The notes beneath the pieces are model-generated. The model was not told where the DNA came from. It did not search any database and worked only from the letters and a program-made list of their open reading frames with translations. Shown piece by piece: positions 1 to 22,634 of a DNA stretch of 64,000 bases. The position numbers were made by a program, and so were the translations under genes. Source of the DNA: Spizellomyces punctatus DAOM BR117 (taxonomy: Eukaryota). The stretch lies in assembly GCA_000182565.2 (NCBI GenBank), contig KQ257453.1. The stretch is one strand, 5' to 3'. Each line of letters starts with the position of its first letter. Position 1 is the stretch's first letter.

Positions 1-3000
1 CAGATGGGAAGTGGTCGGATAAAGGAACTGGAGTTGTGGAATGTGTATATGTGGAGGTTAGTTTGCAACCAGATCTCACATACCAGGTCCTTGAAGGAAA
101 AACGGCCGTGCCTTGACTAACTGGCGCTCTCTTTCCTTCAGCCTAAGGAAGCGATGTGTTTGGTGGTCCGCTCGGATCGAGACAATACTGTGCTGATGAA
201 TTCGACCATTCGCAATGGTGTAAATTATGTTCGTCAACAAGGTAAATAATACAATACTCTTCGCAGTCCCCGTTCACCACACAAACATTTTGATTGACTC
301 GGGAATAGATACCCTCATTGTCTGGACGGAGCCAAATGGCCAGGACCTAGCACTTAGTTTTCAAGCGGCGGCAGGGTGTACAAATCTCTGGTATTTGCGT
401 CCATTGAGCGTATTCGCCCGGATGCCACAATAGTGACACCTTTGTGCAGGGACGAACTAGATCGAATCAAAGAGCGGCAGGCTGCTGATAAACACGGTAT
501 GTCGTAAAATGCACATTCGAGATATAATATGTTCTTGCTCTCTCGATGCTCATGCGAAGGGCGGTGCAGATATCGATCAGCTACCGAATACCCATGAGCA
601 TGACGGTTAGTGCTGGAGAGGTACTATGCGTGATTATCCTCTGGATGCTGATTATGTCGGAACAAATGTGTAGAAGAGGCAACCACAGAAGATTATCAAG
701 GACCACGCGAGTTGGATCTGCCAGATCCCGAACTAGCCAATCTCAAATACTTGGAAGAGCTGGTATTTCGAGCAGCCAGGAGTGTGTTTGGAAGAGATCT
801 TCTTTTGCAAGCTGTAGAGCGAACGGTGGGCGCATTGCGTTGGAGGATTATTATTTAAAGGTTTCCGTGTATTGATGACCAAATTACAGAATTTTATTCG
901 AAAACTGCTCCCGGTGTTTGAGACAAGTGAAGATTTAGAAGATATGGAGAGCCTGTACGCGCTGTCGAGTATATTACGGTCATTAAGTATGGGCCGCTAC
1001 TTACTTGCCCTCAATGGTTGTCGCTTTTGTCTAAAGTATCATTCAGTATTTTTAAATGAGGGAACCATTTTTGAGTTGATTCTCAGTGATGAACTCTTCA
1101 CGAGCGTGCTTGGAATACTAGAATGTGAGCATTCATCACATGTCGCAATTCATTACGAGACCTCATATGAAGTGATTTAAACAATAGACGATCGGGAGTT
1201 TCCAAACATGAAAGCGGAACACCGTGAACACTTTGCAAAACACGCCCAATTCAAACAGGTGAGCCTTAGCGACGCGATGCGTTTCGTGAACTTTGCTGAC
1301 CGTAGCTTACCAGATTGTACCGATACGAAACTCTGAGATACGCGCCAAAATAAATCAAACATATCGGGTCCAATACCTGAAGGACGTTGCGCTTGCCCGT
1401 TTATTAGACGATGGCACTTTTTCCGCCCTATTGTCGATGACCTTTTTCAATCAAACTGAGATAATCCAGTATATCAGGCAGGATCCGACGTTTTTGAAAG
1501 ATGTCTTCGGACTTTTGATGGCGCCGGAGACCCCGCAAGAGAAAAAAGGGGATGCAATCATGTTTCTGCATGAGCTTTGTTCGATTACAAAGAATTTGCA
1601 ATCCATGAACCGAGGATTGTTTTTTCGGTAAGAATTGATATACACGTTATCCGGAAAAGACATATCTCATTTCCTGCAGACATTGTGACCCAGATGCATT
1701 TTATCGGACTTTGATCAATCACGGGCTCTTCAATGTTCTGAGCACCACGTTCTCCAATGAGGATGTTCGTGTTAGGACGGCCATGACAGCGATAACAGCA
1801 CATCTTCTAGAGCACGATGCAAATATTGTCCGAACCATGACTCAAGCACAAGTCAAGGCTGCGGACGGTCCCCCTTTCATAGAAATGCTGATCGATCGGC
1901 TACTAGAGGAGTCGGATGCGGGTCTACGATCACAATACGCAGAGATGATTCGCATTTTACTGGATACCGCACCATTAGATACGTCTGAGGTAGGTGGTCG
2001 AAGGACGAGGCTGCATCCACCCTGGCTGCTGACCAATGTACTCTTATCAAGGGCATTGTTCCGCACCTCCCGTCTTCGGAACATGCCGTAGATAACTTTT
2101 TACAGCTTTTCTACGACAACTGGGTGGCAAAGCTCGTGAAACCTGTCCTGCAGCTTAATACCGAAGGGCACATGAAGGCAAGACCTGGTGCGTATGATGT
2201 CATCGTGGGTTTTTTGACCATCAGACAATTTACAGTCTCATGTGGCAGACGGCCTGGAAATCTTTGAGCTTGATCCTGACCAAGCGGCCGTGTGCAATCA
2301 TATTTGCGAATTGCTTTGCTTCATGATTAAGCAGCATCCTGTGCGTTGCCCGTACCTCTTTACCACGACCGACATTGCATCCAAAGTTGCACTGCTACTT
2401 CGATCAAAGGAGACATATTTACGTCTTTGTGAGTTGCCTGTCGATACTCTTAGGTCTTGCGTGGTTTCTAATTGTCTTGTCCAAAAGCTGCCCTTCGAGT
2501 TTTTCGAGTATGCATCGGAATGAAAGACGTGTTTTGGCATCGACTGCTGATCAAAAAGGACATTTTCAAAAATGTTCTTACAGCGTTCTTCGAAACAAAG
2601 TCAAAATATAATTTGCTCAACTCGGCATGTTTAGAGCTATTTGAATTTATTCGAAAAGTAAGAATACTCACGCCAGAGTCGATGCCAGATACCTAGCGCT
2701 GACCACTGCATCCTAGGAAAACCTGAAACCCCTTGTTGCGCATGTGGTCACAAACTACAGGAAGCAGATTGAGGAAGTGGACTATGTGGATACTTTCAAG
2801 GCCTTGATCCTGAGATATGAACAAAACATTGAGCCGCAGCCCAATGGCGGGGAGAGTTCAGAAGAGTACGTCAAGAATCATTTTTCTCTTTTTCAAGCCA
2901 AGCGCGTACTCAACATAATTTACGTTACAGGCCGACTCACGACAAGCAAAAAGCGCGCGATGGCTGGAATCGGACGGACGATGCAGAGGAAGCGTACTTC

Positions 3001-3639
3001 AATACGTCAGATGAAGATGAGGACGGAAACAGCTCTGGCACAGTCGTGAACGGAAATTCCACTCGGGACAAGAAAACGTCAAGCAGTAAGCTTTCGCCGC
3101 GCCGTGGGAATATTGAATTTGTGCGCGCTTCGCCAGATCTATTACCACCACGACCATTGGTTGACTATCCTGATGACGACGACGATGATGTGATCGGGGC
3201 ATTGGCAACTAAGGGCAAGACGGGTAGTCCTACTGCTTCGTCGAAACTCTCATCAAAGGTGTCTCCAGTGGTGTCGGCCCCAGTAAAGATTAATTTTACA
3301 CTTGGAGGACCAAGAAGAGAAAAGAGGACGCGGGACGATGAAGAAATGGCAAAAGGGCAAGCAACTAAGAAGGAAAAAGTTGCAGACGTAATTGTTGAAA
3401 CAACGGCAGATGCAAATGAGTCAGCAACTGCTGGCAGGGAAGAAAAGAAGAGTAATGGCAAGCCGGGTGCATTGAAGGAAAATGCAGGAGCGGAAAAGAC
3501 CCTTGCGTTGGTGCATGAAAGAGGTGACCCAGAAACTAAAGTGGAGTCTGAAGCAGGGCTGTCCAACGGCGAGGGCACCGCGACACCACCCACCGTGAAC
3601 TCCACAGGGCGAAATGCTACTAGCAAAGAAAAGGGGTGA
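1..3639 (+). CDS. PSY2: Protein phosphatase 4 regulatory subunit 3 (PP4R3/Psy2/SMK-1), multi-exon, 5'-truncated by the window edge
   Basis: EVH1-like start (DGKWSDKGTG; QQ/DTLIVWTEPNGQDLALSFQAAAGC). SMK-1 core motifs KINQTYRVQYLKDVALARLLDDGTFS and KYNLLNSACLELFEFIRK. C-terminal LVDYPDDDD motif. Canonical introns; stop TGA at 3637-3639. Confidence 0.93.
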
Positions 3640-12764: not shown

Positions 12765-15700
12765 TCACGTTCGCTTCATGCGTCCCCACAAGACCAGGTA
12801 CGCAATCGCCCGTACCAAAACGGTCAAAACCGCGACCATAGTCATATTAAAAGCCCAATCGCTATTCGCACTCTCGAAATCCAACAATCTCAACGCATCC
12901 TCACCAGTCCGGTACAAACAGATCCCATCACGGACATCAGCATCTGAGCAATAAAACTCGAGCCCGTCAAACTCTTGGCTGGCTGTAATGCGGGATACAT
13001 ATCTTGTCAAAAAGGCATAGTTGATACCAGCGAGGAAGGCTGGCATTTTAACGGAAAGGAACCCAGACATCATGACTTGAAGGGAGATAACCGTCGACAT
13101 GATTTGCACAGAGAATCCGACACTGTTCACCATTGCACAAAAAGCAATCCCGATACTTTCGCCAGTATTTATCTGACAGTGATCGAGGTGTTAGTGATAT
13201 AGTGTAAGAACAGTTTTAACGACGCTCAACTTACGAAGCAAAAGACAACGTAGAAAAAGACAAGAAAGTTTGAAAGGGACGCCTGAAGTCCAATCACATA
13301 GATCGTAAACACAGAATATATCAACGCACTTGCAATTTCTGCCCCAATGAAAACAAGAGTAAGATTTCACGCCTTCTACGGGCAATTATAAGAGCACTTA
13401 CCAAATGGCAACTCATTGGTCAAGTAACTGAAAAAGAAGGAGGCAACGCTGTACACATTATCCCTGTACTCGAATTTCATCAGGTTGAGTTCTTGTGGGA
13501 AGACGGCGATGCAGTTGAGCATTCCGACAAAAATGAGGGAACCCTGCTGTTGCTGTAATAAGACGAATTAGAATCTCGTACAATACTGATGGTTCAAAAA
13601 CGGCCAACATACCAAAAGACCCATCCGTGCTTGAACAGAAGGCTGATTCTTACTCAACCGTGCAAAATATCTGTAAAGATCAAGACAACGTTAGTATCCT
13701 ACCGTAATTTACTCAATGTGCAAGCACTCACAAGGTGAAAATAATGCCCAAGGCAACTACTTGCATAATCCTCGCCGCTGCCAAGTTCACCTGACGTCTC
13801 ATATTCACAATACTCCTCCTAATCAAAACCCCTAATGACGTCCCAAGCGGCGCACGCTGTCGATATTGCAAACCCGCAAAGTCCACAGAAGTCAATACAG
13901 CGTCCTCGCTCTTTTGAACTTTTGCCTTTCCATCCGTCGTCCACCGTACAACCAACTCATCAACTCTCTTCCGACTGCGTTCTTCAGCCTCCGCGTTACG
14001 CAAGTCTACTGAAGACAGATCCAGGGCAAAATCGGCTGGGTTGGTCAGCGGCGGTATAACGTGGTTCAAAGATGCTAGGTAAGGGATCATAGAACGAGCT
14101 GGACCCGAATAAATGGGTCGGCCGCCTCGGGCGAGGAGAAGGATTTGATCAAATAGTTTGACAATGTCAGAGCGAGGTTGGTGAATTGAGACAATAATCG
14201 TTCGGCCGCCGGTACTGGCCATTTCTTTCAGTTGGGTCATGAGGTTGTGTGACGTATAGGCGTCCAAACCACTTGTAGGTTCTAAAACACACAGTTTTAG
14301 ATACCAAATCACCAGATGATAGAATCAACATCCGACTCACCGTCAATAACCAAAACGGCCGGGTTGGTCAACATCTGAATCCCAATACTCAATCGTCGCT
14401 TCTCACCGCCAGAAAGACCCTACACAGCACACTATCACGATCCTGCATGTATCGACCACAAAAAAGAATGTCTCAGCCTACCTTGACGACGCCCTCTCCT
14501 CCCACAACCCTGTCCGCGCAATCTTTCAATCCTAGCTCAAAAAGAACCTTCTCCGCTCGCTCAATCTTCTCCCCAACACTCATTTCCCTCGGCAATCTCA
14601 ACAGCGCCGCATACCGTAAAGTTTCGCGTGCTGTGAGAGCAGGCAAGAGGTGGTTGTCGTCCTGGACGACCAGCGAGCAAATGGACGCAATTTGGGCTGA
14701 AGAGTCAAGTTCAACGCCCTTGTATAATATACGCCCCGTTTGGGTCGTTTGGGTCAGCGGGCCGGTGTGGAGGGGTCGACCCATGAGGAGATTTAGGAGG
14801 GTAGATTTTCCGGCCCCGGATGCTCCCAAGATGACAGATAGTTGTCCAGATGGGAATTCCGCCGTGATATTTTGGAGGATAGGAGTAACCGTTGCCGTCG
14901 TCTCCTTTGCCGGATAGGCCTTTTTGGAAATGTACAGCGAGACATCATCCAGTCGAATATCAATTCTCGGAACGCTGGCCTCCCCCCGCTGCATCTCTTC
15001 ATCAATCGCGAGAGTTCGGTCCTTCTTATCCCCATTCTTCCGCATAATCGCCGAAGCATGTCGAACACCAGAATGGGGCTTAAGTCTCAACACCAAACCA
15101 GTGAGGAACATCAGAATGGCATAATTGACGATCAACGCAACAATAGGGGTGGTATAATCGTTGGACTTGAAACCCAAGCTCTTTAAGATGCTTTCGCCCT
15201 GGCAGCGCGGGTCCTGCCCGTTAGTGCCGAGTTCGGGGCATGCGTACTCATTGTTCGTAAACTCATTGGTGGCTAGTAGGCGGTAGCCGTAAGTGATGTA
15301 TGAGATTTCCTGCAGTTGTGGATTAACAAAGAGCAAAATCGGGTGTGAAAACATGAGGTTATTCGCAATAATACCTTGAACCATCGCAGGTAGACGGGAA
15401 TTTGATCGACCTGGATAAACACGTAAAGCAATTAGCTCAAAAAAAACCGGAGAAAATGGCAAAGACCAGCCATTTACGAACCTGAATGAAAAACCCAGAG
15501 GACGTCGACAAGAAGGTGAAAAACGAGTTTCCAATCAAAGAGGCTGTGGCAAAATCTCTCGCCCATGAGATGCAAAAGTACGCCCATCCGATCCTATCAC
15601 CACGTATCCATTAGCATCCAAGCAACCTAAAGCACAACACGTTTGCAGGCAAACTCACGTTACAAACTGCATCAATACGTTTCCGCCAGCGAAAACTCCC

Positions 15701-17632
15701 AAATGCCACATTTCATCTGTCCGCAACCCAGACATAAAGTACAGAATGACGGAAAAGAGGCAAGCCAAGACCACATAGAGGAAGAAGTTGGCGACCAACC
15801 AGCCGAGGAGGTATGGAATCACGCCGTACATTTTGTCCAGTCGCTCGCGGTCAAATACCTTCATTCTAAGACAGAACGTAAGCATCACTGCGGGAGGTCC
15901 GAAAGAAAGATCCTGGAATGCTTACTCCATGGAAAGTTTGTAGATCATGAACATGAGGCCAAGGTAATTTTGTACGGAGGCTGTAATGTACAACATCGAT
16001 TTACGACCAAGAATCCCACTCTGAAAGTCCAAAATCGAGAGTTGGTCTGTCATGCGCACTAGATATCCGTTGGTAGAGCAAAACTAACCTGGGTCTCATC
16101 CAACTTGTAAAAAACATAGCCAACAGCCGTAGCCAAAGTCAAAACTTCCAGGACTGATCCCCAAAGCGTAAGTCGGTCCTGTAACAAATTTCTAAAAGTT
16201 CTCTCGGCAAGAATTTGGGTTTGTCCCAAAAAGGACGCTCCAATCTGCTTGTTCGGCATAAAGGCACAGGGTTCCTTTGTCTTCTCTTCCACAGATGGAA
16301 GTAAAATCTCCATCTCAATGCCCTCCCCGGTGCGTCCAGTCTTCCATGCTTCAACAAGAGTCTTGACTCTCTCCTTTCCTTCCTCTTCTGCCTTTTCATC
16401 CCGATTATCCACACTCGTGACATCAATCAAAAAGTCAGCCGGGTTAACTTGATCGGGAATATCGTAGCCCAGCTTGGCAAAATAGTCCAAAACAGTTGCG
16501 CGTGCGCCGGAATAGACAAGATCACCCCGGCTGAGAAGAACGATGGAGTCAAAGAGGTCAAAGATATCGGATCGGGGTTGATGGATCGAGACACATATCG
16601 TTCGGCCTTTTCGACAGAGGGAGACGAGGGTTTCAATCAAGCTGTGGGACGTGAACGCATCCAGACCTGTGGAAGGGTGTCAGTATGCTGTGGTAGAATG
16701 GTAGAATGATGCGCCTACATAGCCCACACTTACCAGTGGTAGGCTCATCCATAAAGATGATACTGGGGTTAAGCAGGAGTTGGACACCCACCCTACGCAT
16801 ATCACAAAATAAATCGTCTGAGATGATCAGAGCCCCTCGTAAAATCTCGACCCATTACAACGTACGATACACGTCTCTTTTCGCCTCCGGATATCCCTTT
16901 CCGCCACTCATCGCCAACAATGGTATCCGCACATTCTTTCAGTCCCAATTCCAAAATAACGTCCTCGACCAGTTTATATTTCTGACTTCGCGGCATGTCA
17001 TTGGGGAGTCGCAGACGGGCGGCATAGCGGAGGGTTTCGCGGACTAGCACAATGCTGTCAGAGATGCGCTCGGTGTGACCAATAGTGTGTGCACTAAATA
17101 CCGGTTAAATAGGGCAACAGCTGATCACTCTGTTGGACGTATGCAACACGACCGGTAGCAATATAGGTCTTGGCTGGACGGTTGTTGATCAGGATTTGGC
17201 CGGTAGTTTGGACATTGGTGACGCGACCTAGTTTTTTTCAATGTGAGCGTGTAGATTGTCGCAGCAAGTGATTTTGGATTTTTTTACCTGCCATAGCATT
17301 CAACAGTGTAGTCTACAAACATATCATGGTCAGTCAAAGCTGTAAAAAAGACATCTCAATAGTGTATCCGATCATCACCTTTCCACTCCCACTCCCGCCC
17401 TGTTTAAATAACCAAGAACCATTACTATCACCCGCAAGTCAAAAATCCCGGCAGAAACAAAAGTAAAGCATACCATAATGGCCAGCAACTTGCCACTTGG
17501 AACGTGCAGACCCACATTCCTCAGCACCTCTGTCCCTGTAACGCGCCTTGCACCCTGCCATCCACCCCCAACCGACACATACAAGTCGCGAACGCTAATA
17601 TCCGCCGGCTCGACGTGGTCAAAGTTGTCCAT
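12765..17632 (-). CDS. Full-size ABCG transporter (NBD-TMD)x2, YOL075C-like, multi-exon (start approximate)
   Basis: Two NBDs with Walker A GGSGSGK and GASGAGKS, signatures ISGGEKRR and [15 protein letters not shown] and SIHQPRSDI. Each NBD is followed by an ABC2 membrane region. Confidence 0.93.
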
Positions 17633-18074
17633 AAAGTGCAAAAGAAAAGCAACTCAAGGACTAACTGTTCAAAACCACCAAGACGACGAAAAGACCAACT
17701 TAATTCATTCGGAAGGACGGAAACTTTGGAATGAAATTTAACCTCGGAATGGAATTTAACAAAAACTTGTTCATATCCCCATTTCAACACTTTTTGTGCC
17801 AGCTTTGCGTCCAGCCGGCCGATCGGAAATTTCACACTTTTGAGGCTTAGTCTGGTGACTTGCTTACGTACGCATCGAACCTTGACCAAGTGACGTCAAA
17901 GGCGTTTTATGTTTTGGTTATTTTTGTGGATGTTTTTTGTGTGCTTTTGGAGGGGAGGAGGGGCCAATGGCCCAAAGATGAGCGATACTTTTATTGTGTC
18001 GTTGTTCTGCTTTGCGCTGTTGCAGACTGTATTTGGCTGCTGTCACGAGACGTTAACGGACGTTGAACACAGAC

Positions 18075-19496
18075 ATGCTCGTTCTGAGCATTTTAGGGGC
18101 CTTCATCGTGCTGCTCATCTTTCATGATTTTCTGTGGACAACCTTTTCGGTTTCTTCGTATGTCTTTTCTTTGTGTCTCTTTTTGCATGGTCTCCTGTTG
18201 ATAGTCTCGTTTCTATTCTACAGGAATGGTTTCATCACGCGATGGACTACGCGAGGTTCGTTACTATTCGTTATGCGATCAAAATATGCAAGTCAATTTG
18301 TGAACTCGGTTTTTCAGGCATCGGAAGGTTTGCATCCTTGCTTTACGAAACCTTTCCATGGACACGCAATCATTTTCACGCTTTTGCCGAAATCACAATC
18401 GGTGAGACTTGTTTGTTCTTTATCTCCCAAATCATTTCTAACAATATTCCCCGCTACAGGTGTCATCCTCATGATTTGGTATATCGGAACCTGGGCTGGT
18501 TGGTCCCTCATCTTTAGCAACGTACCAATCATACAAGCCAGCAAGCAATCGGACGTCACCCACGTTGGGGAAAACATCACGCCAGCGGATGTGATATACT
18601 ATACTGGCACAGCTTTTTTCACTCTTGGATTGGGTGATTATGTTGTTGACTCTGGAGCAACGTTTTGGAGGATTATGAGCAATGTATGTGCGGCCGAGGG
18701 GATTTTGCTGGGTATTATTACCGTCACATGTTTGTATTCTGTGCAGTACCTGAACATCGTTTTGAGCTGTGGAACTAAAAACAACTTTACATAGACCTAC
18801 TGGCCGCAGTAGACGCCGCCACAGCGACATGCACATTTGCCAACATACTCGTCTGCATGGGCGGATCGCCGACGCATATCTTGATCAATGCATGGAATCC
18901 GAAGACGAAATCGTTTGGATCATTGGAAAGCGCGTTGATTGATGCATCGGATGATTTAGGAATTGAAAGGCAGAATTACATTTTATGTATGGCAGAATGT
19001 TTTTTTTTTTGCTTTTGGATTTCATAAAGTATAAAGCTAACAAAATATTGTTCAAAATTATACAGATCCAGTTCTCTTTACGTATTCGTTTTCCACTGGG
19101 AAACCCGCCTACGACAGCTCACCTCCCCGCATCGCTGCCCTTGATGACTTGCTGACCATCCTCCTGCACGCCATCGACCCTGCTTACACTCCCTCACGGT
19201 ACATTCTCCAAACGACGCGAATGGCATTAACAGCGTATTTGGACATACTCTCCGCTGCGCGCATCGACTCTGCAGAGACCGCACCCCCACCCCCGGATTT
19301 GACATTGCTACGTGAAAAAGGTTTACCAGTGATTGTCAATGATGATATGTGGAAGAGAATATGTGAAAGAGAGAACATTCGGAAGCGACGGTGTTTTTTG
19401 CTGGGTTTGATGGTCCGGTGTGGCCACGATTGGGACGATGTTGTAAGCATTACGTGGCCGGAGAAGAGCGAGCCGGGGATGTGGTGGGAGGAGTAG
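18075..19496 (+). CDS. Prokaryote-type 2TM potassium-channel-family (Ion_trans_2) protein, 5 introns
   Basis: Spliced protein has N-terminal TM/DFLWTTF, IWYIGTWAGWSLIFS, pore helix and filter DVIYYTGTAFFTLGLGDYV, and inner helix WRIMSNVCAAEGILLGIITVTYLL. Cytosolic tail contains YPVL, ALDDLLTIL, PPPPDLTLLREKGLP and RRCFLLGLM. Confidence 0.85.
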
Positions 19497-19644
19497 GATG
19501 TTTGACTAGCGTTTGTACATAGACCTGTTTGATATATTATTTACAAGTACTGACGAAAAAAAAAAATGATCGCAGAGACTATGTAGCCCATTGCCACAAC
19601 CAAAAAAGAGCATATATACAAATGACCACACAGAGCTCCACAAC

Positions 19645-22634
19645 TTACACTGCTCCCCCAGCAACTACCTCCAACCACGGCCCCAGAGCCTTCAACCAGG
19701 GTCCCATCAGTTCTGGGACAACCTCCAACCCCAATGGATCCTTCCACTCTGTCTTTTGCCTATACACGACGCCAAAGCCCGAGGCGGCAGCTACAATGCC
19801 CGGCTCCACAGTGGGAGGCTCCATCATAAAGGTCCCGTCAGAGGAATCGCCAGATTCATCATCGACCATGAGGGCTCGGAGTTGGCTTTCCACATCCTCT
19901 TCGGTTGTGGGCGGTGTGGGAGTCTCGGATGGTGCGTCGGAAGGATCAACGAGAGATTCAAAGCTGGTGATGCTGCGTGCCTTGTGGAGGGGTTTGGGTA
20001 CTTGGAGTGTATTCCGATCGTCTGCAACACTGTCTGCAACACCGTCTGCAACACCAGTGAGACCATCCACCCAAACTGGCCCATGCTCTTCGGCCCAAAT
20101 ATCCTGCAACGCCAACCCAACATCAGACACCTGTAATTCCTCGTCCAAAACATCTCCCTTGGCCACACCCAAGACTCTAGACAGAACCCTTTGGCGGACC
20201 TTTTCATTTCGTTCCTTCTTCCTTGCCCGCAGCTTTTCCAAGTCCCTCATTAAAGCCTCTCGATCAATCGACGGGTTTTGGACGACGGATGCCAAGTCCA
20301 CCACTGGGCCATATCCACGGAAAAATTTGGCAACGTCATCGGCCCAGGATGCGATCTCTGCTAATGAATGGATACGGCCAGGCTGCGCAGAGAGTGTTGA
20401 ACGGACATGCTTAAAAATTCGATGCTCATGGCGTGAGAGAAGGGTGATGAACGGGCGAAGGGGTGGCGCATTTGCATTGCGTGGTGCAGTCGGCCCTGTT
20501 TGCAACTTTTGTGAGCAGAGGCATGATCCGAGCATTTCATGGCCTAGATATACCTTTCGCCTGCTCAATCTCAGCAATCCGCAACAAATCTTCAATGAAC
20601 TTTGCCCCGTCTCGTATGCAGCTCCCCGGATCAGCCGCCTAAAGATGCCGTTGAGCGCTCTTGTTTTTAAAAGCCCACTCGAACGAATTTTAGAACCAAC
20701 CTTGTACGCTTCAGTGAGTGGCTTATAACTGATTGCCAGAATATCTTTGGCGAGGTGAACCACCACGTCCTGCAAAGTAGTAAATGAGCATCTATACACG
20801 AGTTGAAAAGAACAATGGATATCGGACGGACCTCCTGGACGAGATTTCTAAACTGATGTAGACGCCTCATCCTCCAGTAATATCCCAACAGTCTCTCTAC
20901 AGCCTGTCTCTCCGGGCTTGCCGCATCTGGTTGGTACCCCAATATCTGTGCAGGAAGGTCTGCCGAAATATCTGGGGAAAATTATCAATCGAAAGGTTAC
21001 ACCGTGAATGACATTTGAAATTACCTAGCTCATAACCACCCAATGGTGCGCGGTTGACCACTTCCTTGGCACTGATGGATATATCTGGACCTGTAAAACG
21101 CTCAACATATTGAATCTCTTTCAATGTCGCTCGGATTTCATCATCAATGATTCCTGTAATCATGCTTGAGACCCAACATTGTATCAGCGGGGCTGTAAAC
21201 TAATGGTCACACAAGAACGTTGCTCACCTCTGCAATAAGCACTTGGTTCCAAATGGTCGCGCAAGGAGGAGATTTCCAATTGCTTTCACAACCATGACAG
21301 GATTGGTGCTCTTTAGTAATGCTGCCCAGCTCCTATACGGGGCACGGGAATGGAAGGCTTTGAGGCGACGCAAGTGTTCTGGAGCGCGATCGTGCGTTAT
21401 GAACGTGCGGTAGAACGAGGCTGCGGCACTATTCAAGTACATCACGCAAGCATTAGGTATTTTATGATCATGCCTTCCTCAGTACTCTGCATGATACTCA
21501 CCACATTTTCCACCATTCAACAACCATTCTATAATGTGCTGGCAACTCGGAAATCTCCTCGGCTTTACCAATCACCGCAAAAACCTTTGCCAAACCTCCT
21601 GGTTCCAACACCTCGTCCCGGAACATGTCTAAAGCTTTTCGGATTTCATCCGCCTTCTTGGAAGCTTCCTGATCATCGCTATTTGAGTGGACGATGGGCT
21701 CAGACTGGTTCAGAAAATCGCGGAGTGTTGATGTCGGCTGTGATGATAGACTCCAGAGATACGTGGTGAGAGACGTGATCGCGTAGCTCAAGGATGTGCC
21801 TTTGGGTGTGCCAGATACTGTAGGCAAGGCCGGGATGCGGAGGTTCGCCCGGCGAATGAGCTGTAGGATTTTCATAATGTGTTACTGCATATCCTAATGA
21901 GAAAAATATGGAAGATAACTCGCGAACTTGCCTCTTTATGAAGCGATTTAAAAGCACCATAGTCTCGACGCGCGATCGCCGTCCGACCGTTCATGATAGA
22001 TCGCACTGTATACTCCTACGAAATGTATAGACATTTTAGCCGGACTCTAAGCTGTGTACCATTTCCCCATTGCAAATTAGTGGAGACGTACCACAGTCTC
22101 TGAGGACCGCCATAAACCTTTCTTGACAGTCACTTTTGTCTCGACAATCTCCACTTCTTGAAAAACAAACTGCTTTTGCTCCGGGACTTGCACTCCATTA
22201 CCCACTCTTGTCCCTTCTTTAAGCTCATATTCTTCTGTTGTTGTCCTAACAGATTTGCCCAGCATTGCAGCGATAGCATCCACAGCCTTGTTCGCCAGCA
22301 AATCCCTCTTTGCTATATGAGATGCAGTACCACCCGAATCCACCCCGCGGAACAATCCCAAAAACCTTCCGCAAACCCTCCAAAACTCTTTTGGTCCGTT
22401 ATCTGCTGCTTGGAGAGGGGGAAAGGGGAGTAGAAGGCGTGAAAAGAGAGGAGAGAGGAGAGGGAAAGTTGCGTCAGGTGTTTCGGGAGAGGGAGGAGGA
22501 ACAAGAGCGCCTATAGATTCCGGTGTATCCAGCAGCGCTGATATTTCTTTTCGGAGTTGTCTTGCAATTAAAGCCTTTTTGAGCAAATGCACATCTTCTC
22601 CTGTCAATGGTGCGTTTGTGGGTGACGTGTTCAT
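19645..22634 (-). CDS. PX-domain protein of the YPR097W/Lec1 family (PX-associated + DUF3818), multi-exon
   Basis: N-terminal VHLLKKALIARQL..EI, PX-like segment RRANLRIPALP, LKAFHSRAPY, LLARPFGTKCLLQR and FITLLSRHE...FKHV. Confidence 0.8.

Follow-up and report, generated by a model that had tools for sequence, protein, structure and literature searches.

Among the described channels closest to the one reported here, those of the Kir family lack an extra N-terminal transmembrane helix (here TM0) and possess a cytoplasmic domain rich in beta structure, and the RCK domains that gate channels such as MthK and GsuK are Rossmann-like. For fungi, TOK channels have two pore domains per subunit and, according to Table 1 of PMC3410928, 9-10 predicted membrane segments, and the K+ channels of pathogenic fungi treated in that paper are TOK-type, plus Kv-type homologues in Cryptococcus. 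Here we describe a channel gene at positions 18075-19496, on the plus strand, of a 64,000-nucleotide stretch of contig KQ257453.1 of the chytrid fungus Spizellomyces punctatus DAOM BR117 (assembly GCA_000182565.2); this whole stretch is referred to below as the window. What is new is to find, in a fungal host, a pore of the K+-channel superfamily joined both to an additional N-terminal helix and to an unassigned helical domain that is predicted to form a ring. In the literature searched, this family is described for neither fungi nor bacteria, nor did any experimental account of the bacterial members found here turn up. Taken as a whole, the reading that we consider probable is that of a functional nuclear gene for a tetrameric, probably K+-conducting channel with a cytoplasmic ring, derived from an old transfer from a bacterium to a fungus.

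The gene extends from an ATG at 18075 to a TAG stop codon at 19494-19496 and consists of six exons and five GT..AG introns, all on the plus strand; the exons, joined by script, give 1092 nucleotides (nt) that translate into 363 amino acids (aa) with no internal stops, as the initial annotation had proposed in stating that five GT-AG introns restore the frame. Exon 1 (18075-18157) carries the start codon and the first membrane helix, TM0, within which lies the family motif HDFLWTT (18123-18143). Intron 1 (18158-18223, 66 nt) is followed by the 32-nt exon 2 (18224-18255), encoding a loop and the start of an amphipathic helix, and this helix continues beyond intron 2 (18256-18317, 62 nt) into exon 3 (18318-18401), where TM1 begins. 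Exon 4 (18460-18729), which follows intron 3 (18402-18459, 58 nt), encodes TM1, the turret, the pore helix, the selectivity filter TLGLGD (18621-18638) and the inner helix TM2. Past intron 4 (18730-18794, 65 nt, donor GTTTGT), exon 5 (18795-18986) covers the cytoplasmic extension of TM2 and the first third of the C-terminal helical domain, including GGSPTHILINAW, and intron 5 (18987-19065, 79 nt) interrupts the YPVL motif. Exon 6 (19066-19496) supplies the remainder of the helical domain, with AALDDLLTIL, PPPPDL and KRRCFLLGL, and the stop codon. With AYLDIL and PPPPDLTLLREKGLP also present in the spliced protein, all of the motifs listed in the initial annotation were recovered. The introns have a G+C content (GC) of 0.24-0.38, below that of the exons. 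The position of intron 4 was not derivable from sequence alone, and it was fixed by aligning two orthologues (matches to the read-through frame) across the junction. These are P0001, a 360-aa annotated hypothetical protein of Spizellomyces 'palustris' in which 321 of 360 positions are identical to the spliced window protein, and P0002, also 360 aa long and from Phlyctochytrium arcticum, in which 208 of 358 are.

RNA data confirm that the gene is expressed and spliced. A single contig from the RNA library of run X2 joins 18157>18224, 18255>18318 and 18401>18460 with no other differences, and a single RNA contig of run X1 joins 18986>19066. Introns 1, 2, 3 and 5 are thereby skipped, and four of the five introns are spliced. 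The intron 2 junction was reported as 18253>18316 with a cut of +2, and that of intron 3 with a cut of +1. Contigs of run X5, for which the kind of library is not on record, retain introns 1, 3 and 4. In run X11, raw RNA reads concentrate on the last exon with a 3'-biased depth (19303-19546), and three of them bear a loose run of A residues behind 19566, which marks a probable poly(A) site at the end of a 3' untranslated region spanning 19497-19566. Runs X1 and X2 are labelled as root metagenome, and the spliced contigs of the gene, covering window positions 18051-19491, show zero or one difference, which indicates that a near-identical organism was transcriptionally active in the root metagenome samples.

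As an explanation of the locus, bacterial contamination or a dead pseudogene has next to no likelihood. Nothing beyond the bacterial affinity of the protein family speaks for it, whereas five GT-AG introns restore a single open frame, four of them are spliced, and reads end in poly(A). The neighbouring frames carry RWD and UPF0029, ABCG-type ABC2_membrane_7, PXB and Mediator Med1 domains (Pfam), a eukaryotic neighbourhood in keeping with the fungal neighbours claimed previously, and the orthologues reside, like the other fungal members, on 95-kb to 973-kb scaffolds of other fungal assemblies. The earlier judgement that contamination is unlikely is thus upheld by introns, RNA splicing, flanking genes and orthologues together. 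The channel coding sequence has a GC of 0.493 and a third-position GC (GC3) of 0.552, with values of 0.48-0.54 and 0.45-0.56, respectively, in its neighbours. No second copy of the gene was detected by tblastn within the 64,000-nt window.

Ion_trans_2 (PF07885) was the sole Pfam family detected in the pieces of the window protein, and it was likewise the one family scored in the orthologue P0001 (21.6 bits) and in three more distant fungal-clade relatives introduced below (P0003, 24.3 bits; P0004, 35.7 bits; the open reading frame (ORF) on metagenome contig L081, 29.0 bits), these three passing the gathering cutoff of 22.5. NCBIfam returned no family, save a 17-bit partial match on P0004. A lone match among solved structures, to a beta-glucuronidase at E 0.56, was discounted as noise. 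The AlphaFold2 model of P0001 (pLDDT 91.7, pTM 0.88) contains TM0 at residues 2-24 (mean hydropathy 2.07), an amphipathic helix at residues 31-50 (mean hydropathy 0.02), TM1 at residues 59-87, a pore helix at residues 108-121, TM2 with a long extension at residues 134-178, and an all-helical C-terminal domain at residues 182-347. The pore fold of tetrameric cation channels (TM1, pore helix, filter and TM2) is present in this model, and its best local fold match is NaK (Foldseek probability 0.97-0.98, TMt 0.63-0.65, rmsd 2.6-2.9, 98 columns). Over model residues 24-159 it superposes on KirBac3.1 with a Z of 8.1 (rmsd 3.5, 100 aligned), and it also superposes on Kir6.2 (Z 8.0), GsuK (Z 7.3) and GIRK2, the range being Z 7.3-8.1; a Foldseek search of the whole P0001 model against the Protein Data Bank (PDB) gave no match at E<=0.001. 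With one filter, one Ion_trans_2 stretch and three membrane helices, the window protein has the single pore domain and extra N-terminal helix first read from its sequence and, judging by the model, it is very likely a subunit of a tetrameric cation channel.

The relatives of this protein extend far beyond fungi. A profile of P0001 and P0002, searched against 1.84 billion representatives, matched 988 clusters at E<=1e-3, of which 626 and 153 remained when the threshold was tightened to 1e-10 and 1e-30, respectively. Almost all of the matches are 330-360 aa in length and aligned end to end; they span about positions 2-350 of 363, with E values down to 3e-48 outside Spizellomycetales. By BLASTP, the check that the initial annotation had suggested, bacterial relatives aligned with the spliced window protein over its full length, at 28-33% identity over about 340-360 residues. 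The alignments thus include the C-terminal domain, and the proposed match of the whole architecture to a bacterial family is borne out. D18 and T22 of TM0 are kept in 138 and 130 of 141 aligned members, and the near-invariant residues D18, T22, G30, T121, G123, G125, R169, Y221-P222, R329 and W343 are all found in the window protein when it is aligned with P0001.

In a pattern scan covering one genome per prokaryotic species, 292 of 323 matches encode relatives. The best 80 of the 292 are all bacterial and come from eight phyla: Cyanobacteriota (46), Acidobacteriota (13), Planctomycetota (10), Actinomycetota (4), Rhodothermota (3), Bacteroidota (2), Deinococcota (1) and Verrucomicrobiota (1). 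Database entries, in which bacterial members are labelled 'potassium channel family protein' or 'ion channel', extend the list to Bacillota (Planomicrobium, Planococcus) and Chloroflexota (Anaerolineales), among others, giving a bacterial range of at least nine phyla. Outside fungi, all of the named or genome-traced members are bacterial. A language-model atlas likewise returned bacterial clusters, plus one in which Methanobacteriota is the commonest phylum, no more than a hint of the haloarchaeal members named in the initial annotation; a haloarchaeal-style composition (D+E >16%, K <1.5%) was found in 0 of 194 stored sequences. The range is patchy: of 301 genomes sampled from each of two phyla, 12 in Cyanobacteriota and 33 in Actinomycetota encode a relative at E<=1e-20, the latter including the unpublished G393. 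None of 309 pattern matches in viral contigs encodes a relative.

The genomic surroundings of the bacterial genes revealed no shared partner among 83 flanking ORFs of 43 loci. Of the 13 Acidobacteriota loci, 7 have Peptidase_MA_2 next to the gene, apparently a case of synteny within that lineage. A DUF421/YetF membrane protein lies downstream on the same strand in 5 of the 43 loci (L010, L015, L020, L025 and L053), four of them cyanobacterial and one from Salinibacteraceae. One copy, in a metagenome-assembled genome labelled Nocardioides (G002:C6:1752-2756, also L078), has one in-frame TGA inside the match, which may reflect either a disrupted gene or an error in the sequence.

Within this largely bacterial family, the fungal sequences fall together. 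The best non-orthologous match is P0003, a second protein of Spizellomyces 'palustris', which has a Phlyctochytrium orthologue, P0152; a further relative, P0004, belongs to the blastoclad Paraphysoderma sedebokerense (Blastocladiomycota). All of these join a clade of 10 rows, comprising the window protein, P0001 and P0002; P0003 and P0152; and P0004, P0022, P0069, P0089 and P0130. The clade received an SH-like support of 100 in a FastTree analysis of 200 rows, a Shimodaira-Hasegawa-like approximate likelihood ratio test (SH-aLRT) value of 99 in a quick IQ-TREE analysis of 76 rows, and an ultrafast bootstrap of 100 with an SH-aLRT of 98 in a careful IQ-TREE analysis of 71 rows, from which five rows (one long-branch and four near-duplicates) were left out. 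Inside it, the Spizellomycetales paralogue groups A and B pair at 98/88, and P0004 groups with the four unlabelled rows at 99/92. The residues A161, F225 and N226 are common to the clade and rare outside. By these comparisons, the gene extends beyond a single fungus, with two paralogues in Spizellomycetales and the Paraphysoderma protein in one strongly supported clade, and both this clade and the bacterial range of the family emerge clearly from the sequences.

An old gene transfer from a bacterium to a fungus is the most likely and simplest account of this distribution. The family would have arisen in bacteria, and one copy would have entered an early zoosporic-fungal lineage, where it would have acquired introns and the base composition of its host; a duplication would then have preceded the split of Spizellomyces and Phlyctochytrium, and the gene would be retained today in few lineages. 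As the paralogues and the blastoclad relative lie in one clade, any transfer should be old and followed by vertical descent and duplication. Because the trees are unrooted and their backbone is weak, we can only infer the direction of transfer and the donor, and the age likewise. The initial annotation had suggested a domesticated bacterial channel, and the bacterial range of the family, the introns and the eukaryotic context all support this suggestion, with the direction of transfer as a probable part of it.

Two other histories were weighed against such a transfer. In the first, the gene would be an ancient eukaryotic one, inherited vertically since before the fungal radiation and widely lost, with the bacterial family as its sister or its recipient. 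This is consistent with the single clade that the eukaryote-type rows form across two fungal phyla, duplication included, with the five introns and host-like composition, and with unrooted trees in which no donor lineage is resolved. We nevertheless regard it as quite improbable, as the clade makes up only 10 of the best 150 of 988 clusters, the other traced or named members are bacterial, and the window protein is as similar to bacterial members (28-33% identity) as to its fungal paralogue (33%). The stem of the clade, at 0.305, is no longer than many intra-bacterial branches; of the 69 internal branches, 14 are at least as long. With at least nine bacterial phyla set against three named fungal species, vertical descent with many losses is less economical. 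In the second, the gene would have entered zoosporic fungi repeatedly, or moved later among fungi or other eukaryotes, instead of being acquired once in a chytrid-blastoclad ancestor. The named hosts are indeed few and distant (Spizellomycetales and Paraphysoderma only), and the Paraphysoderma protein groups with four unassigned sequences, one of them on an AT-rich compact contig; however, the topology, in which chytrid rows stand opposite the blastoclad row and its relatives, is that predicted by vertical descent, and the derived residues are common to the whole clade, so that we consider this history unlikely.

A number of results weigh against the overall interpretation of an old bacterial K+ channel gene and temper it. 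With regard to the origin, the nearest bacterial group (Planococcaceae-type) has a support of only 35/38 in trees that are unrooted. The named eukaryotic members are limited to three species, Spizellomyces 'palustris', Phlyctochytrium arcticum and Paraphysoderma sedebokerense, no direct survey of eukaryotic genomes having been made, and the detail on family membership comes from the best 150 of the 988 matches, most of which are nameless. Four clade members (P0022, P0069, P0089 and P0130) are of unassigned source, and P0130 is an intronless ORF on L081, a 3375-bp metagenome contig of 34% GC; if the four were bacterial, the fungal rows would form no clean clade. With regard to the gene and its product, no RNA contig covers intron 4, for which the support is the orthologue alignment, and the AlphaFold2 model, made with a 141-row alignment, is that of the 89% identical P0001 and not of the window's own spliced protein. 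Ion_trans_2 on exon 4 scored 22.4 bits (E 1.1e-4), marginally under the gathering cutoff of 22.5, and a sequence search of solved structures at E<=1 returned no channel. Finally, the K+ signature T-x-G-[YF]-G-D is not matched, as the window protein reads T-L-G-L-G-D with leucine in place of the aromatic residue, and K+ selectivity is uncertain because of this filter and because the best fold match is the non-selective NaK.

These last results bear directly on the ion that is conducted. A channel of the NaK or CNG type, non-selective or otherwise selective and not K+-selective, would account for the missing aromatic residue, for NaK as the best local fold match and for the marginal Ion_trans_2 score, and the family tolerates N, L, V, T, M and I at the position concerned (N in 35, L in 33, V in 21, T in 15, M in 12 and I in 12 of 141 members), which is never mainly aromatic. 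On the other hand, the remaining residues of the K+ signature are conserved in most of the 141 members (T in 133, the two G in 139 and 136, and D in 122), a G-L-G filter occurs in some K+-selective two-pore-domain channels, and bacterial members are named potassium channels in databases, by homology only. We therefore see a non-selective channel as a possibility of some substance, yet one that falls clearly short of being probable. The missing aromatic residue lowers the claim to strict membership of the K+-selective channels and not the claim to K+ conduction; the channel probably conducts K+, and K+ selectivity is plausible but not secure.

Contig L081, which carries the intronless clade member, has some further features of its own. 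Within 995-3075, only 27 bp separate a phosphatidylserine decarboxylase ORF from the channel ORF that follows it on the same strand, both being intronless, and such compactness is unusual for a fungal locus. In the region 3156-3357, Rfam calls a tRNA at 37.3 bits in which an insert of 69 nt stands in place of 11 model positions, and ARAGORN found no tRNA on the contig with or without its intron option. Just upstream of this tRNA-like stretch, the nematode small RNA family RF01656 scores 39.8 bits (cutoff 38) with the middle of the model missing.

The C-terminal domain comprises some 180-200 residues and is all-helical in the P0001 model, with which a model of the domain alone, made from the clade relative encoded on L081 (pLDDT 95.7), agrees. 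No Pfam family was found on exons 5 and 6 or on this domain in the relatives, and Foldseek gave no match of the domain model to the PDB at E<=0.001. The best superposition by VIA-align, to the small subunit of a laccase-like protein (Z 8.2, rmsd 4.0, 128 aligned), and those to generic helical repeats at Z of about 7 are at the noise level for helical proteins and were set aside. The domain thus remains uncharacterised, as first described, with neither a family nor a convincing structural match.

When four copies of P0001 residues 150-360 were modelled together, the prediction of a ring scored 0.74, 0.71 and 0.74, with 0.00 for the best of three controls; contact agreement between the runs is at least 75%, with a partner pLDDT of at least 75. 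Residues 201-220 and 260-277 of one copy meet residues 166-206 and 236 of the next, and as two different surfaces are in contact, the arrangement is head-to-tail, like that of a closed ring. Of the proteins used for calibration, 20 of 30 same-chain pairs and 1 of 23 single chains reached the mark, and of those from eukaryotes 17 of 29 pairs, only 1 of the 7 pairs without an older solved relative and 0 of 30 single chains; the ring job differs from these in using four copies and its own alignment. Four C-terminal domains are accordingly scored, and here only predicted, as a four-membered head-to-tail ring.

A possible mode of action can be outlined from these models. Each subunit would contribute TM0, in which one Asp and one Thr are almost invariant, an amphipathic helix at the interface, and the TM1, pore helix, filter and TM2 unit, with the long extension of TM2 leading into the all-helical cytoplasmic domain. 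Four subunits would form the pore, and their four cytoplasmic domains a head-to-tail ring beneath it; on some signal, movement of this ring would reach the inner gate by way of the continuous TM2 helix. That the ring gates the channel is a hypothesis suggested by the position of the domain on the TM2 extension and by the ring prediction; we infer the tetramer, the ion selectivity and the gating role of the tail from sequence and models. More tentatively still, and as a conjecture that we hold to be possible rather than probable, the all-helical domain could be a new type of channel-gating ring, unrelated to RCK, Kir-type and cyclic-nucleotide-binding modules and responsive to some ligand or state, and a single bacterial gene captured by a stem zoosporic fungus could have been kept, duplicated, only in flagellated lineages, where it would serve the membrane potential or osmotic control of the wall-less zoospore.

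If so read, a single-pore channel of bacterial type, long kept in zoosporic fungi, adds a channel class to the early-diverging fungi. It would be a clear-cut case of an ion channel probably acquired from bacteria and since then fully domesticated, with introns, host composition and duplication, and it points to a large unstudied bacterial channel family of about a thousand 50%-identity clusters. Since the C-terminal domain models with high confidence and a ring is predicted, the family should be tractable for studies of structure and gating.

Two neighbouring features of the window were also recorded. Downstream, a convergent minus-strand frame of 400 codons without a Pfam family occupies 19645-20847, and minus-direction RNA reads extend to about 19486, past the A-run of the channel gene behind 19566; the 3' ends of the two seem to overlap by tens of bases. 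Upstream, long minus-strand frames with ABC_tran and ABC2_membrane_7 at 13728-16679 are apparently exons of one ABCG-type transporter gene.

In comparison with known systems, the window protein is closest to its bacterial relatives of about 330-360 aa, examples of which come from Calothrix, Coleofasciculus, Planomicrobium soli, Flavobacterium, Phycisphaerales and Thermoanaerobaculia. It shares with them the D..(W)TT of TM0, the G-P-L-T loop and the two-helix (2TM) pore with T-L-G-x-G-D, as well as the NAW, YP(V)L, ALDE.LT, PP.P.L..LR..G(I)P and RR.LL motifs of the C-terminal domain. The fungal clade differs from them in A161 and in having F-N/T instead of H-Y after YPVL, and the window gene is further set apart by its five introns. 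As in KirBac and Kir channels, TM1 is preceded by an interfacial helix and the 2TM pore lies above a cytoplasmic domain, whereas the cytoplasmic domain of the window family is all-helical, and no Kir Pfam family was found on the window pieces (E<=1) or the relatives (E<=0.01). NaK of Bacillus cereus likewise has a non-aromatic residue between the two filter glycines, but at about 100 residues (chain of 104) it amounts to a 2TM pore alone, without TM0 or a large C-terminal domain. RCK-gated channels such as MthK and GsuK have a 2TM pore under the control of a cytoplasmic ring of C-terminal domains, the ring being a prediction in the present case, whereas the C-terminal domain here is all-helical without a clear structural match, and no TrkA/RCK Pfam family (TrkA_N/TrkA_C) was found on the window pieces or relatives. 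TOK1, as a fungal channel, also has K+-type pore loops; in contrast to its two pore domains, the window protein has a single Ion_trans_2 stretch, one filter in one pore loop and three membrane helices, in keeping with the distinction from TOK drawn at the outset by the initial annotation.

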